Both the position numbers and the translations under genes were made by a program. Source: an uncultured Ectothiorhodospiraceae bacterium (GTDB taxonomy: Bacteria; Pseudomonadota; Gammaproteobacteria; HK1). Taken from it: 62,810 nt of DNA. This document shows, in pieces, positions 22,116-26,385 of this stretch; the first letter of the stretch is position 1; each line of letters starts with the position of its first letter. The DNA lies in NCBI GenBank assembly GCA_964605765.1, contig CAZSDY010000001.1:1-62810 (forward strand), in the 5' to 3' direction. The notes under the pieces were generated by a model. The model was not told the DNA's origin. It saw only the letters and a program-made list of their open reading frames with translations, and ran no database searches.

Positions 22116-23120
22116 ATGCAGCCGTGGACTCATGAGCCGTTCGGGTCAAAGATCAGGAGACACACGCAGTTGTTCGAGAACGCGACGGTGGCCGTTGTGG
22201 TGCCCTGCTATAACGAGGAACTGTTGATCGGCACAGTCATCGAGACCATGCCCGGGCTCGTGGATCGTATTTTCGTGGTCGACGATCGCAGCACGGACGC
22301 CACGGCCGACAAGGCGCGCCGCTATGCCGCCGAGCAACCCGAGCGCATCACCGTTATCGAGCACGACGTCAACCAGGGCGTTGGCGGCGCCATTGCGACC
22401 GGCTACAAGGCGGCACTCGCCGAGCGCTTCGACATCACGGTGGTGATGGCGGGCGACGCGCAGATGGACCCCGATGACCTGCCCCATGTCGTGGCGCCGG
22501 TCGCCCGCGGCGAGTGTGATTACGCCAAGGGCAACCGCCTGTTCAGGGGCGACGCCTGGCAGCTCATTCCGCGCGTGCGATATCTCGGCAACTCCATGAT
22601 TTCGCTGCTCACCAAGATCGCTTCTGGCTACTGGCACGTGGCGGACTCGCAATCGGGATATACCGCCATCGGGCTCGTTGCTCTCGAGCGCATCGACTGG
22701 GACCACATGTTCAAGCGCTACGGCCAGCCCAACGATTTGCTGGTGCGCCTCAACATCTACAATTTCAAGGTGCGCGACGTGAACGTCAAGCCCGTCTACG
22801 GCATCGGGGAGGAATCGGGGGTCAAGCCCATTCGCATGATCCCGAAGCTCGCCTGGCTGCTGTTCCGGTTGTTCATGTATCGCCTGTTCCAGAAATATGT
22901 GATCCGCGACTTCCATCCGCTGCTGTTCTTCTACGCGCTCGGCATGGTGCTGTTCCCCACCGGATCGCTGCTCGGCGCATACCTGTTCTTCAGGCGCATC
23001 TTCGTGGGCCCTGTGGCCGAGACGAGCGCGCTGTTCGCGGTTTTTCTGGTCATCATGGGGTTGCAGTTCCTGCTCTTCGCCATGTGGTTCGACATGGAGT
23101 ACAACAAGGACCTCAAGTGA
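22116..23120 (+). CDS. GT2 glycosyltransferase with two C-terminal TM helices (GtrB/ArnC/DPM1-like polyprenol-phosphate sugar synthase type)
   Basis: VAVVVPCYNEE ... FVVDDRSTD ... MAGDAQMDP (DxD-type) GT-A motifs. C-terminal hydrophobic pair FHPLLFFYALGMVLFPTGSLLGAYLFF and ALFAVFLVIMGLQFLLFAMWF. Confidence 0.8.
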   Translation: MQPWTHEPFGSKIRRHTQLFENATVAVVVPCYNEELLIGTVIETMPGLVDRIFVVDDRSTDATADKARRYAAEQPERITVIEHDVNQGVGGAIATGYKAALAERFDITVVMAGDAQMDPDDLPHVVAPVARGECDYAKGNRLFRGDAWQLIPRVRYLGNSMISLLTKIASGYWHVADSQSGYTAIGLVALERIDWDHMFKRYGQPNDLLVRLNIYNFKVRDVNVKPVYGIGEESGVKPIRMIPKLAWLLFRLFMYRLFQKYVIRDFHPLLFFYALGMVLFPTGSLLGAYLFFRRIFVGPVAETSALFAVFLVIMGLQFLLFAMWFDMEYNKDLK

Positions 23121-23124
23121 GTCG

Positions 23125-23919
23125 GTGCGGTTGAGCTTACGGCGGTCAAGGACCCGGGATTGGACTCTGGCGAAGTACCAGGAGCTGTGCGAGGCGGTTC
23201 TTGGCTCTTGTTACCAGACGCAGCGCATTGACCACTATATCGAAGCACCGGTCGCCCGCGCGGCGCTATTGAGACATGATATCGATCGGATTCCCGGCAA
23301 CGCCATCGCCATGGCCAAGCTGGAATGCGATCTGGGTATCCAAAGCACCTACTACGTACGTGCTACCCGCTCGGTTTACAGCCCGGAGCTGGTGAGCCAG
23401 CTCGATTACCTCGGTCACGAAGTGGGATATCACTACGAGGTGATGTCGAAAACACGTGGCGATGTCGATGCTGCTATTGCTCTATTCGAAGCCGAGATCG
23501 AGACACTGAGGGCAGTCGTCCCGGTGCGTACCGCTGCGTCTCACGGCGCTCCGCTGTCGCCTTGGAACAACCTGGATATCTGGCGACACCGCAAGCCGGG
23601 CGAATTTGGACTGCTGGGAGAAGCCTATCTGCAAATCGACTATGCCCAGATGGCCTACTACACCGATACGGGTCGGAGCTGGTCCGCCTCGCGCACAAAT
23701 CTGCGCGACCGCGTGGACGCTCCAGCCAATAGCCCCGTTGCGAGCACCACCGACGAGCTCATCGGGGTAATCGACAAAGCGCTACCTCTCGCCGTGTGTC
23801 TACAAACCCATCCAGAGCGATGGAACCTCACCTTGGCCGGTCTGATGCGCTCACTCATGGTCGACTACGCGGCGAACACGGCCAAAGTAATGATTGCCTC
23901 GGTACGCTCATCGTCATGA
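23125..23919 (+). CDS. polysaccharide deacetylase (CE4/NodB-like; ArnD-like context)
   Basis: LLRHDIDR (Asp pair) and LGHEVGYHYE (His-His motif), typical of the NodB fold. GTG start 4 nt after the GT2 stop. Confidence 0.65.
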   Translation: MRLSLRRSRTRDWTLAKYQELCEAVLGSCYQTQRIDHYIEAPVARAALLRHDIDRIPGNAIAMAKLECDLGIQSTYYVRATRSVYSPELVSQLDYLGHEVGYHYEVMSKTRGDVDAAIALFEAEIETLRAVVPVRTAASHGAPLSPWNNLDIWRHRKPGEFGLLGEAYLQIDYAQMAYYTDTGRSWSASRTNLRDRVDAPANSPVASTTDELIGVIDKALPLAVCLQTHPERWNLTLAGLMRSLMVDYAANTAKVMIASVRSSS

Positions 23920-24752: not shown

Positions 24753-25667
24753 GTGACCAAACGGAACTTACCCTTGCTGATCAGTGTCTTGTTCACGCTG
24801 GCGGTGGTTGTCACTGTGGGCTCCGCGTTGGACTGGAAAAGCGCAGTCGGCACTCTCAAACACGTCGATCTGCTCTGGCTTGGCGCCGCCCTGGTGATTT
24901 TTTCTATCAACTACGCACTCAGAACCTTGCGCTTCTTGACGTTGCTGCACGCCCCCGAGCTCTCCGTTCGCAAACTCGCCGGAGTCACCACTGTTTACGG
25001 CATGTTCAATTATCTGCTACCCGCAAAGAGTGGAGAGCTCACCTATGTCGTATTGATTAATCGTTACCTTCCAATCGACATTCCCCATGCAGCGGCCACC
25101 CTCATTAGCGCTCGGTTTTTTGATTTTGGTGTGATCGCGCTGGTCTTACCGGTGGTGCTGGTCGCTTTCTACCGCGTTTTCCCTGGAACCATGATTCAGG
25201 CATCCATCCTTTACCTTGTGATTGTCAGCGGTGCGGTGGTGGGTTTGCTCGTGTACCTGCGACGCAGTCGGCCACGCTCGTCACAAAGTGGTTGGAGTAA
25301 GATGGTGCAAGGACTGAGGATCATCGATCAGCGCCGCCAGTATCCCGATTTGCTGGTGCTGACGGGGGGTATCTGGCTTTGTGTCTACACTAACTTTTAT
25401 TGCATTGTGGCAAGTATCGGTTACGAGCCGAGCTTCATCCAGATGATAGTGGTATCCATCATTCTCGTTCCATTGACACTTCTACCCGTTCAAGGGGTGG
25501 CTAACATCGGGACCCACGAAGCGGCCTGGGTTGCCGCTTTCTCGCTGTTCGGCGAACCGCTGGAAACCTCTTTGCGAATTGCGGTGACTACGCATGTGGT
25601 CCTGTTTGTTTTTGTACTGATATTGGGCGGTGTCGGCTACGCATTGTTGCAAGGGGACTCGCAGTGA
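24753..25667 (+). CDS. flippase-like membrane protein (UPF0104 / LPG-synthase-TM family)
   Basis: About 8 predicted TM helices. Family-typical INYALRTLRF and LPAKSGEL motifs. GTG start 7 nt after the sulfotransferase stop. Confidence 0.7.
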   Translation: MTKRNLPLLISVLFTLAVVVTVGSALDWKSAVGTLKHVDLLWLGAALVIFSINYALRTLRFLTLLHAPELSVRKLAGVTTVYGMFNYLLPAKSGELTYVVLINRYLPIDIPHAAATLISARFFDFGVIALVLPVVLVAFYRVFPGTMIQASILYLVIVSGAVVGLLVYLRRSRPRSSQSGWSKMVQGLRIIDQRRQYPDLLVLTGGIWLCVYTNFYCIVASIGYEPSFIQMIVVSIILVPLTLLPVQGVANIGTHEAAWVAAFSLFGEPLETSLRIAVTTHVVLFVFVLILGGVGYALLQGDSQ

Positions 25668-25749
25668 GCGAAGTCGGCAGAAATCGAGTGCCTGCCTTCG
25701 ACTTCACAATTGGAACCGATGTCTGATGGTCTGGGAGGAGAGATCAATC

Positions 25750-26385
25750 ATGTCCGATCCCGATCGTCCGGCGACCAACGCGGGGCCGTTCTTCGGTGGC
25801 ATCGATGCCAAGCAAGCGAAGTACGCGACCCGCAATCCACTCAGCCGTCATCTCGTCGGCCGGTTTCTCAGGACGATCGATTCGCTCGTCGCTCGCGCCG
25901 ATCCGGCTTCCGTCCTCGATGTCGGCTGCGGGGAGGGGATGGTCCTGGATCACCTCCAGCGCCGCCTCGAGGGTCGGGACTGCGCCGCCATCGACCTCAA
26001 TCCGGTCAGGGTGGCCCACGCCGCCCGCAACCTTTACTGGTGCCGGGTGGGTGTGGGTAGCGCGTACGAGATTCCGTATGACGCCAACCGTTTCGAGCTC
26101 GTCATGTGTTGCGAGGTGCTCGAGCACCTCGAACGACCGCACGACGCGTTGGCCGAGCTTGCCCGCGTCTCGTCGAAGTTCGTGATCCTGAGTGTTCCTC
26201 GCGAACCAATCTGGCGCATGCTCAACCTCGCGCGCGGTGCGTACTGGTCGCAATGGGGGAACACTCCCGGGCATCTGAACCATTGGTCCGCAGGTGGCTT
26301 CGAGTCGTTCGCGGCATCAAAAGCCCGGGTCCTGGAGCGACGCAACTCACTTCCCTGGACGGCGGTGCTCGGTACCGTCACATGA
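25750..26385 (+). CDS. class I SAM-dependent methyltransferase
   Basis: Motif I VLDVGCGEGMV and post-I/II ELVMCCEVLEHLERP. ATG at 25750 inside track ORF 25630..26385. Confidence 0.8.
   Translation: MSDPDRPATNAGPFFGGIDAKQAKYATRNPLSRHLVGRFLRTIDSLVARADPASVLDVGCGEGMVLDHLQRRLEGRDCAAIDLNPVRVAHAARNLYWCRVGVGSAYEIPYDANRFELVMCCEVLEHLERPHDALAELARVSSKFVILSVPREPIWRMLNLARGAYWSQWGNTPGHLNHWSAGGFESFAASKARVLERRNSLPWTAVLGTVT

Follow-up and report, generated by a model that had tools for sequence, protein, structure and literature searches.

A five-gene block beside pilA that may build a tailored lipid-linked sugar for type IV pilin glycosylation in an uncultured Ectothiorhodospiraceae bacterium

The 62,810-nucleotide stretch of DNA from an uncultured Ectothiorhodospiraceae bacterium analyzed in this study (GenBank contig CAZSDY010000001.1, positions 1 to 62,810; referred to as the window) has a G+C content of approximately 64% and contains a type IV pilus gene neighborhood. 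Upstream of the pilin gene pilA, positions 22116 to 26385 hold five genes encoding a family 2 glycosyltransferase (GT2), a protein resembling CE4 deacetylases (the CE4-like protein), a 3'-phosphoadenosine 5'-phosphosulfate (PAPS)-type sulfotransferase, a UPF0104 flippase-like protein, and an S-adenosylmethionine (SAM)-dependent methyltransferase. We propose that the product of this block is a lipid-linked, tailored amino sugar with which the type IV pilin is O-glycosylated in the periplasm, a reading that draws on sequence comparison, structure prediction, and gene order and to which we give about even chances. The genes of the block, pilA, and the two large membrane protein genes that follow it, designated BIG1 and BIG2, are as follows.

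22116..23120, forward strand: GT2 of the polyprenol-phosphate type (ArnC/GtrB/DPMS/AglJ-like), 334 amino acids (Pfam, NCBIfam, and transmembrane prediction)
23125..23919, forward strand: CE4/NodB-fold protein, 264 amino acids, cytoplasmic (AlphaFold model and Foldseek)
23916..24746, forward strand: PAPS-type sulfotransferase of a divergent family, 276 amino acids, cytoplasmic (Pfam, motifs, and profile search)
24753..25667, forward strand: UPF0104/LPG_synthase_TM (MprF flippase-domain) membrane protein (Pfam PF03706, COG0392)
25750..26385, forward strand: class I SAM-dependent methyltransferase, cytoplasmic (Methyltransf_11, 8e-16)
26685..27113, forward strand: pilA, type IV major pilin, the proposed acceptor (Pfam Pilin and N_methyl)
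27209..29263, forward strand: BIG1, 684 amino acids, polytopic membrane domain with C-terminal TPR (model and family alignment)
29317..31437, forward strand: BIG2, 706 amino acids, a paralogue of BIG1 (48% identity) with its motifs intact (sequence comparison)

All five open reading frames (ORFs) described in an earlier sequence-only reading of this DNA are present at these positions, and the enzyme classes that it assigned were upheld by the family and fold searches given below. The spacings within the block are +4, -4 (an ATGA-type overlap), +6, and +82 nucleotides; the 4-nucleotide gap and the overlap had been described correctly, and the gap given as 7 nucleotides is in fact 6. The methyltransferase most likely starts at the ATG at 25750 rather than at the GTG at 25630; this ATG is preceded by the Shine-Dalgarno sequence GGGAGGAGAG and lies 82 nucleotides past the stop codon of the flippase-like gene. 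The starts at 23125, 23916, 24753, 26685, 27209, and 29317 are the same in the NCBI gene calls, and the true start of the GT2 may be located approximately 18 codons downstream, because its homologues are 315 to 316 amino acids long and the NCBI call differs.

The same genes were found together at loci in other genomes, which are numbered here from L001 upward. In the following lines, CE4L denotes the CE4-like gene, ST the sulfotransferase gene, FLP the UPF0104 flippase-like gene, and Hexapep a hexapeptide acyltransferase gene.

L001 (gammaproteobacterial): pilS, pilR, pilA, BIG, BIG, GT2, CE4L, ST, FLP, then suhB
L092 (gammaproteobacterial): pilS, pilR, pilA, BIG, BIG; on the opposite strand GT2, CE4L, ST, FLP, Hexapep; then suhB
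L089 (gammaproteobacterial): arrangement as in L092, frameshifted
L093 and L088 (gammaproteobacterial): suhB, GT2, CE4L, ST, FLP, a Dlt-like set, BIG, BIG, pilA
L002 (gammaproteobacterial): the cassette with Hexapep, then a transposase
L087 (gammaproteobacterial): CE4L, ST, FLP only
L007 and L008 (Desulfobacterota metagenome-assembled genomes): pilR, pilin, BIG homologue, VKOR-DsbA fusion, GT39/ArnT-family enzyme, GT2, CE4L, ST relative, Hexapep, UPF0104
L005 (Chloroflexota metagenome-assembled genome): WbpA/B/E/D-like sugar-nucleotide genes, GT2, CE4L, methyltransferase, ST, FLP, PMT-family GT-C glycosyltransferase; no pilin

The cassette stands together with pilA and BIG in the window, in L001, L089, L092, and L093 (L088 is alike but cut by the contig end), and in L007 and L008 of the Desulfobacterota; conservation of the gene set beside pilA is thus found in two phyla. 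In all five gammaproteobacterial loci that carry GT2, CE4-like, sulfotransferase, and flippase-like genes and are long enough and free of transposase disruption, pilA-BIG lies within 5 kb. The recurrence of one gene order in unrelated phyla indicates that the block is not a chance juxtaposition. The GT2 of L007 and L008 is 55 to 57% identical to that of the window and is directly adjacent to the gene for a GT39/ArnT-family enzyme, named "phospholipid carrier-dependent glycosyltransferase" by NCBI, and the GT2 homologues beside CE4-like genes elsewhere show 55 to 79% identity. Judged by these arrangements, GT2-CE4L-ST-FLP moves between phyla as a cassette, and its neighbors are either BIG genes or genes for classical GT-C enzymes.

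The BIG homologues are directly 3' of pilA in L001, L007/L008, L089, L090, L091, L092, and L093, and they form tandem pairs or triplets in L001, L088, L089, L091, L092, and L093. Three of them, in L090, L091, and L092, were looked up independently, and each directly follows pilS-pilR-pilA; L092 carries the cassette, L090 a different glycosylation set, and L091 three BIG copies with no cassette nearby. The contexts of L090 and L091 show that BIG is not bound to this particular cassette. In L007 (13500-15361, reverse strand; Desulfobacteraceae), the BIG homologue is split into a 528-amino-acid membrane protein and a 217-amino-acid TPR protein, and a VKOR-DsbA/thioredoxin fusion is encoded between these BIG-derived genes and the GT39 enzyme.

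The GT2 possesses a GT-A catalytic domain with the family 2 signature (Pfam Glycos_transf_2, 4.4e-24) followed by two C-terminal transmembrane segments at residues 269 to 287 and 305 to 323. It matches the NCBIfam AglJ model (1.6e-24, model positions 2 to 283 of 293) and the ArnC model (positions 7 to 285 of 316), and its best match in the PDB is the Pyrococcus dolichyl phosphate mannose synthase (5mlz, 3e-13), followed by GpgS and ArnC. E. coli ArnC aligns with it by BLASTP over residues 25 to 319, including the transmembrane region, with 24% identity (E = 6e-14), whereas the polymerizing enzyme PgaC aligns over the N-terminal ~115 residues only. The GT2 with its two C-terminal helices, therefore, groups with the polyprenol-phosphate class and not with the polymerizing enzymes, as the sequence-only reading had supposed; its scores fall far short of the equivalog cut-offs, which makes it a member of this class rather than an orthologue of any named enzyme. 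We propose that it loads N-acetylhexosamine (HexNAc) onto undecaprenyl phosphate.

The CE4-like protein has no sequence match in Pfam, NCBIfam, or the PDB. When 33 members of its family were scanned at E<=10, Pfam and NCBIfam gave no coverage, and Polysacc_deac_1 was reached by only one of the 33 (E = 0.18); the 833 homologues in the protein collection are all unnamed, and none has a Pfam domain. The relation to the CE4 enzymes appears at the level of the fold. The AlphaFold2 model has a mean predicted local distance difference test (pLDDT) value of 93.5, and its top 15 Foldseek matches are all CE4 deacetylases (probability 0.99 to 1.00, E = 8e-5 to 2e-3), with TM-scores of only 0.35 to 0.53, which indicate that the relation is remote. 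A family profile searched against the PDB gave nine weak matches, eight of which were CE4 deacetylases aligned on the His-His motif (H-x-x-x-H in CE4). The invariant residues of the family are Arg50-His51-Asp52, His98-Glu99 and His103 (H98-x4-H103), Arg79, His140, and His229, and Asp54 is nearly invariant (>=90%). Three motifs, LRxD[VI]D, IQ[AS][ST], and HEVGxH, follow each other as they do in E. coli ArnD, and the histidine spacing is ArnD-like; comparison of the two whole sequences gave no significant score, with an hhalign Prob of 2.9% and a local score of 44.5 versus 41 ± 7.6 for shuffled sequences. The earlier assignment as a NodB-fold deacetylase is thus right at the fold level, for a family that has no Pfam or NCBIfam model. 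We propose that the protein is an N-deacetylase of lipid-linked HexNAc that performs an ArnD/NaxD-type step.

Members of the CE4-like family are encoded by at least 597 bacterial and archaeal species genomes. Of 75 large membrane ORFs in the vicinity of CE4-like genes, GT-C enzymes form the largest class (PMT_2, 12; PMT, 4), and 11 matched Polysacc_synt (Wzx-type flippases). In Methanosarcinales (L042, L049, L053, L062, L063, L073, L078, L080, and L082), many loci carry two CE4-like paralogues, mostly spaced 1 to 2 kb apart and approximately 4 kb apart in L080. Most of these loci contain a GT2 of the window family (45 to 47% identity) together with a shorter second GT2 match, and some encode proteins of 640 to 720 amino acids with 11 to 15 transmembrane segments and a weak PMT_2 match. 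A Legionellales locus from TARA (L003, 10001-15049) carries a CE4-like homologue without a GT2 in a cluster resembling those for lipopolysaccharide (LPS) or capsule, with neighbors that include a PAPS_reduct-family gene, a homologue of ComA (phosphosulfolactate synthase), a PIG-L deacetylase, ATP-grasp enzymes, and an asparagine-synthase-like gene; this cluster may represent a different sulfur-containing sugar pathway.

The sulfotransferase exceeds the gathering cut-offs of three Pfam models, i.e., Sulfotransfer_3 (33.7 bits; cut-off, 27), Sulfotransfer_4 (29.2; 22.8), and Sulfotransfer_1 (25.4; 22), and its PAPS-binding motifs are intact, which confirms the PAPS-type assignment made from the sequence alone. 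The 5'-phosphosulfate-binding loop is STGRTGTK, with the invariant residues Arg17, Gly19, and Thr20, and the 3'-phosphate-binding motif is VIRDPRSYVRS, with the invariant residues Arg110 and Ser118; both line up with the motifs of solved sulfotransferases. The family has 1250 representatives (50% clustering, E<=1e-3), and Sulfotransfer_3 is matched by 35 of 40 sampled members. Single-sequence queries against the PDB gave no useful match. With a profile of the 40 sequences, all 37 matches were sulfotransferase-fold proteins (best, 6.5e-10), including CurM (9e-10), OLS (like CurM, ~1e-9), and TPST1 (8e-6). A metagenome scan with a seq­uence alignment of seven members returned six loci, one of which was informative. 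We propose that this enzyme adds sulfate to N or O of the lipid-linked sugar.

The flippase-like protein matches LPG_synthase_TM over its entire length (2e-29, positions 2 to 302 of 302), exceeds the TIGR00374 cut-off, and has at least seven transmembrane segments; sequence searches of the PDB gave no useful match. Its assignment to UPF0104/LPG-synthase-TM therefore stands, and its equation with ArnEF does not, because the protein is not ArnEF-like. Flippase activity of stand-alone UPF0104 members is itself only inferred in the literature (PMC12713373, PMC5898192, PMC10128005); flipping of the tailored lipid-linked sugar by the present protein is our proposal. The methyltransferase is a generic class I SAM enzyme according to Pfam and NCBIfam. 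Related methyltransferases are encoded near CE4-like genes in L015, L021, and L033, and the fifth slot of the cassette is occupied by a Hexapep acyltransferase in L002, L007, L089, and L092. The methyltransferase was thus assigned to the right class, but the cassette does not always include it, as its slot alternates between the two kinds of enzyme. For the CE4-like protein, the sulfotransferase, and the methyltransferase, neither a transmembrane segment nor a signal peptide is predicted, so these enzymes would be able to use cytoplasmic PAPS and SAM; this topology fits what tailoring on the lipid at the cytoplasmic face would need.

The proposed acceptor PilA is rich in Ser and Thr past its N-terminal helix. 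Ser60 of the prepilin (codon at 26862, in ...ACSEAS..., at the end of the N-terminal helix) is invariant in all seven cassette-associated pilins from two phyla and is the sole invariant residue outside the N-terminal helix in that alignment, which includes a Desulfobacterota pilin. With low confidence, we regard Ser60 as a candidate glycan acceptor. The BIG family comprises more than 1300 proteins, mostly unnamed or labeled "TPR repeat protein" and in some sources "Flp pilus assembly protein TadD". In the predicted structure of BIG (pLDDT 87.9), a helix at residues 2 to 26 is followed by approximately 11 more long helices up to residue 420 and then by TPR, which is matched at residues 590 to 680. 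Asp33 is invariant and Asp34 is conserved in at least 90% of the family; this pair is located 7 to 8 residues past the end of the first transmembrane helix. Other invariant residues lie in short interhelix loops: His302-Asp303-Asp304, Glu363, Glu367-His368-Arg369-Asn370-Tyr371, and Tyr286-x6-Pro293. The invariant acidic and histidine residues in loops predicted to be periplasmic point to catalysis. We propose that BIG1 and BIG2 are pilin glycosyltransferases that resemble, by architecture, the pilin arabinosyltransferase TfpW.

In the proposed pathway, the membrane-anchored GT2 would move a sugar, presumably HexNAc, from its UDP-sugar to undecaprenyl phosphate, the probable carrier, at the cytoplasmic face of the membrane. 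The cytoplasmic CE4-fold enzyme would then strip the N-acetyl group from this putative lipid-linked substrate, and the PAPS sulfotransferase and the SAM methyltransferase, whose classes are clear from the searches above, would decorate the lipid-linked sugar in the cytoplasm. The sulfate may be placed on a hydroxyl group or on the freed amine; the latter would parallel the action of N-deacetylase/N-sulfotransferase in heparan sulfate. The UPF0104 protein is predicted to flip the product to the periplasmic face, where BIG1 and BIG2 would transfer the sugar to Ser or Thr of PilA, as suggested by synteny and architecture. The order of functions read from the sequence alone (polyprenol-phosphate GT2, deacetylase, sulfotransferase, flippase) is retained in this scheme; within the Arn-like reading, the GT-C step found no support in the searches described below, and the methyltransferase is a variable element. 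One amine cannot take both an N-sulfate and an N-acyl group, and sulfotransferase and Hexapep genes occur together in the cassettes of L002, L007, L089, and L092; at least one decoration in these cassettes would therefore have to be O-directed, unless the sugar has a second amine, and N-sulfation is one option among others. A bolder version of the scheme, which we consider possible but doubtful, is that the CE4-like protein and the sulfotransferase form a prokaryotic counterpart of N-deacetylase/N-sulfotransferase that converts undecaprenyl phosphate-HexNAc to a methylated undecaprenyl phosphate-N-sulfo-hexosamine, which would be exported by the UPF0104 protein and attached to pilins in a TfpW-like manner. 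In Chloroflexota and Desulfobacterota, the cassette would on this view supply GT39/PMT enzymes that modify other proteins of the envelope.

The block lies in the gene order trmJ (reverse strand), suhB-like gene, the five forward genes, pilA, BIG1, BIG2, pilR (reverse), pilS (reverse), sucCD, bamD, rluD, pilB, pilC, and pilD. The features at its borders and within it are listed here.

20409-21170, reverse strand, divergent: trmJ/SpoU, the partner of suhB at the island boundary
21164..22057, forward strand: suhB-like inositol-monophosphatase-family gene (Pfam Inositol_P, 6e-71)
27159..27190, forward strand: strong intrinsic terminator downstream of pilA, with a stem of 9 bp (all GC) and a T run behind it
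31539..34516, reverse strand: pilR (sigma-54 activator) and pilS (sensor kinase), regulators of pilA, at the other island boundary

The suhB-trmJ pair borders the cassette in L001, L002, L088, L089, L092, and L093, and the pilR/pilS pair also adjoins pilA in L001, L089, L090, L091, and L092. By this conservation, the suhB-like gene is a housekeeping edge of the island, outside the system; the divergent suhB-trmJ pairing is the housekeeping arrangement in E. coli. A role as a CysQ-type PAP phosphatase that aids sulfation was rejected for this gene, given its pairing with trmJ and its position at the border of the sulfotransferase-free island of L090. A sigma-54 promoter 5' of pilA was likewise discarded: despite the neighboring pilR/pilS, positions 26386 to 26684 contain no match to the consensus TGGCAC-N5-TTGCW with up to two mismatches, and the window-wide total of matches is below chance. 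The G+C content at third codon positions is 0.63 to 0.68 in the CE4-like, sulfotransferase, and flippase-like genes (23125-25667) versus 0.77 to 0.87 in the neighbors; by this measure, the genes for the GT2 (0.86) and the methyltransferase (0.77) resemble native ones. The low values fit horizontal acquisition or a mobile glycan-variation cassette, and the cassette may be a mosaic of differently aged parts. The far end of the window (48340-61427) holds a cluster of the denitrification type, which has no connection with the cassette and comprises a COX1-family oxidase/NO-reductase-like gene, SCO1, a cytochrome b/4Fe-4S fusion, and two cytochrome cd1 (NirS-like) genes; from the nirS-type genes, the host is apparently a denitrifier.

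Across the relatives, the suhB-pilRS stretch behaves as a variable, swappable pilin-glycosylation island in which pilA and BIG are constant and the sugar cassette varies. In L090 (12122-16642), the suhB-pilA interval holds BIG, a 286-amino-acid GT2, a methyltransferase on the opposite strand, a UPF0104 gene, and a 654-amino-acid Wzy_C protein (O-antigen-ligase/PglL/TfpO-like); neither a CE4-like gene nor a sulfotransferase gene is present in this island. In L088 (11970-16251) and L093 (~5300-9700), the sugar cassette is separated from the two BIG genes by a Dlt-like set that consists of an AMP-binding ligase, a 36-amino-acid peptide, an MBOAT protein, a 336-amino-acid protein, and a PP-binding carrier protein; its presence suggests an extra carrier-protein-dependent (D-alanylation-like) acylation of the glycan or the pilin in some relatives. 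In L002, the cassette lies between a group II intron reverse transcriptase and a DUF772 transposase (5352-6824 and 13376-15067); this is the one close relative without pilA and BIG in the interval, an arrangement that fits a recombination hot spot.

Several results weigh against pilin glycosylation by this block, and the most direct of them concern BIG. A Pfam search at E<=10 matched BIG to TPR families only, plus DUF6056 at 0.012, and to no GT-C family; phmmer and two profile searches of the PDB gave TPR or nothing, and no GT-C protein; and the Foldseek search with the full-length model, in which the TPR domain dominates, returned only TPR proteins among the 50 matches listed. Comparison by hhalign with E. 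coli ArnT, the PMT enzyme of L005, three local PMT_2 clusters, and a 30-sequence GT39 profile gave Prob values of 0.1 to 0.7%. No GT-C family of NCBIfam was matched, and when 78 neighboring membrane ORFs were searched with the BIG N-domain by hmmsearch, no support for GT-C emerged. The best alignment with the GT39/ArnT profile, which has 172 colinear columns and is too weak to count as evidence (Prob 0.27%), places Asp33/Asp34 on the GT39 invariant Arg34-Asp35 and Lys204-x-Asn206 on Lys176-x-Asn178. Of the GT-C candidates that had been seen 0.8 kb downstream of the block, the distance is accurate (the first large protein gene starts 824 nucleotides beyond the block end), but the GT-C identity is not borne out. 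In addition, a 300-nucleotide spacer separates pilA from the end of the methyltransferase gene, and the terminator at 27159-27190 stands between pilA and BIG1, so co-regulation is not to be assumed; no strong terminator was found between the five-gene block and pilA. No PAPS-synthesis genes are present in the window. The cassette occurs without a nearby pilin in L002, L087, and L005. Finally, the CE4-like family is broad: among its best 79 loci at the species level, a gene for this GT2 is found within 7 kb in only 27, one for the sulfotransferase in only 8, a UPF0104 gene in 6, and one for the methyltransferase in 5.

The absence of a pilin from L002 and L087 would be accommodated if the product were a membrane lipid in its own right, i.e., if an amino-, sulfo-, and methyl-substituted glycolipid were the end product and were flipped outward to tune the membrane charge, with the linkage to pilA and BIG being indirect or reflecting a shared insertion hot spot. 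Glycosyltransferase, deacetylase, and UPF0104 protein are also the components of GpgSDF, the glucosaminyl-phosphatidylglycerol operon of P. aeruginosa (PMC12713373), and of HexSDF, the operon for the aminohexosyl-hexosyl-diradylglycerol aminoglycolipid of C. difficile (PMC10128005), the lipid products of which were shown by lipidomics. These are the sole stand-alone UPF0104 plus deacetylase operons studied experimentally, and both yield glycerolipid end products, which adds to the case against a pilin glycan. However, the known synthases are soluble GT-B enzymes (GT4 or MGDG-synthase-like), whereas the enzyme here is a GT-A GT2 with a C-terminal transmembrane hairpin that resembles the dolichyl phosphate and undecaprenyl phosphate type; UPF0104 is fused to the dolichyl phosphate GT2 AglD and adjoins PMT/STT3-like genes in archaea (PMC5898192); and the cassette adjoins GT39/PMT GT-C enzymes or BIG in three phyla, neither of which a free-standing lipid needs. 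We consider a glycolipid end product unlikely, but it is the strongest of the rival explanations.

Somewhat less probable again is that the chemistry is as proposed but the acceptor is another one, with an unlinked GT-C enzyme decorating lipid A/LPS, an envelope glycan, or proteins and BIG using another donor or not being a transferase. The contexts of BIG in L090 and L091, with a different GT2-methyltransferase-UPF0104-Wzy_C set and without any cassette, respectively, would suit such an arrangement, and the Arn, Lgm, and Flm/NaxD pathways, which follow the same logic, target lipid A; but no ArnT/PMT_2-type gene is present elsewhere in the 62.8-kb window, and the close linkage of pilA-BIG to the cassette in the five qualifying gammaproteobacterial loci recurs in the Desulfobacterota. 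We regard it as very improbable that BIG1 and BIG2 are TPR factors for pilus assembly or stability and that the sulfotransferase acts on protein, for example in tyrosine sulfation. The database labels of the BIG homologues, the lack of a GT-C signal for BIG, and the match of the sulfotransferase profile to protein-tyrosine sulfotransferases (8e-6) would agree with that explanation; set against it are the invariant Asp33, HDD 302-304, Glu363, and EHRNY 367-371 of BIG in predicted periplasmic loops and the sulfotransferase gene itself, which is translationally coupled between those for the deacetylase and the flippase and is kept in the pilin-free cassettes of Chloroflexota.

Glycans on type IV pilins affect how phages and predators recognize the cell, and they also influence its surface charge, adhesion, and twitching. 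If the proposed pilin glycosylation is correct, a sulfated and strongly anionic pilus sugar would be a new means of altering these properties. The cassette marks out two enzyme families without annotation, the CE4-fold family (at least 597 species genomes, no Pfam model) and the sulfotransferase family (~1250 representative clusters), and the UPF0104 "phospholipid flippases" are suggested to serve polyprenol-linked donors as well. The suhB-pilRS interval may be likened to the groups of pilin accessory genes in P. aeruginosa and could provide a compact toolbox for glycoengineering.

In the Arn pathway, ArnC, ArnD, ArnEF, and ArnT act in series on an undecaprenyl phosphate-linked amino sugar, and the Bordetella LgmABCD, Francisella FlmF2/NaxD/FlmK, and mycobacterial PpgS/Rv3779 systems likewise combine a GT2, an on-lipid deacylase, and a GT-C enzyme; ArnD, NaxD, and LgmC remove the N-acyl group from the lipid-linked sugar. 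The block in the window would share with these systems the loading of an N-acylated amino sugar by a GT2, deacylation at the cytoplasmic face, flipping, and transfer by a GT-C enzyme. It differs in that the known targets are lipid A or arabinogalactan, the flippases are of the SMR or GtrA type, and neither a sulfotransferase nor a methyltransferase is known to take part; ArnT has no similarity to BIG. The three-component systems of a GtrB-type GT2, a flippase, and a GT-C enzyme, which include streptococcal protein O-glycosylation (PMC11127046, PMC12041528), have the same logic and GT2 class, but they transfer an unmodified monosaccharide, whereas up to three on-lipid tailoring steps would be inserted here. 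GpgSDF and HexSDF resemble the block in combining a glycosyltransferase, a deacetylase, and a stand-alone UPF0104 protein in one operon and in converting HexNAc to hexosamine on a lipid. Their synthases, GpgS (GT4) and HexS (MGDG-synthase-like), are soluble GT-B enzymes that act on glycerolipids, the product is the end point, and there is no sulfotransferase; moreover, GpgD (COG3233) belongs to a deacetylase family different from that of the CE4-like protein.

The closest parallel to the pilin link is TfpW of P. aeruginosa group IV (Pa5196/PA7), a pilin arabinosyltransferase of 646 amino acids with 11 transmembrane helices, a cytoplasmic N-terminus, a periplasmic C-terminal TPR, and an essential DDx motif in periplasmic loop 1, which is encoded directly downstream of pilA and uses a lipid-linked monosaccharide donor (preprint). 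By the published description, BIG is similar in its position directly after pilA, the DD motif past the first transmembrane helix, the approximately 11 to 12 helices, and the C-terminal TPR. In the TfpW system, the donor is made in the cytoplasm and flipped, and its biosynthesis genes are sometimes clustered with pilA-tfpW. That donor is decaprenyl/undecaprenyl phosphate-D-arabinofuranose, made by DprE1/DprE2/UbiA-type enzymes and served by a GtrA-like flippase, whereas the window encodes GT2, CE4-like, sulfotransferase, UPF0104, and methyltransferase proteins and BIG as two paralogues. Of the Yx6PFx7P motif in periplasmic loop 4 of TfpW, BIG has only Tyr286-x6-Pro293 and lacks both the PF and the second Pro at +9.

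In archaea, Makarova et al. (2015, PMC5898192) described a neighborhood of arCOG00899 (UPF0104), arCOG02876 (polysaccharide-deacetylase family), and arCOG01403 (glycosyltransferase), for example Methanosarcina MA0797/MA0798. A glycosylation role was predicted for it, with no sulfotransferase and no link to pilins there; in our scan, CE4-like homologues are similarly paired with this GT2 in many Methanosarcinales, and we infer that arCOG02876 is the CE4-like family of the window. Halobacterium salinarum makes sulfated and transiently methylated dolichyl phosphate saccharides for its S-layer protein and archaellins (Lechner 1985a,b and Wieland 1985, as cited in PMC6591318). It thus resembles the proposed pathway in that sulfation and methylation precede transfer of the saccharide to a filament protein resembling type IV pilins, and it differs in that the product is an archaeal N-glycan oligosaccharide with hexuronic acids that is transferred by AglB; according to the same source, the sulfotransferase was never identified and recent mass spectrometry did not see the sulfation. 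The cassette would thus offer candidate genes for on-lipid sulfation and methylation, for which biochemical precedent exists in haloarchaea only, with the genes never found there. In a limited literature search, no sulfated bacterial pilin glycan, no sulfotransferase family acting on polyprenol-linked sugars, and no stand-alone UPF0104 protein flipping a polyprenol-linked donor was found to be described. The view that no such system is known for pilins has to be narrowed, since TfpW is known to glycosylate pilins from a lipid-linked monosaccharide, and it holds for the tailoring by sulfotransferase and methyl or acyl transfer. What is new in comparison with all of these systems is the sulfotransferase in a lipid-linked monosaccharide pathway, the two unannotated enzyme families, the UPF0104 protein in the flippase slot, and the link to a type IV pilin in two phyla.

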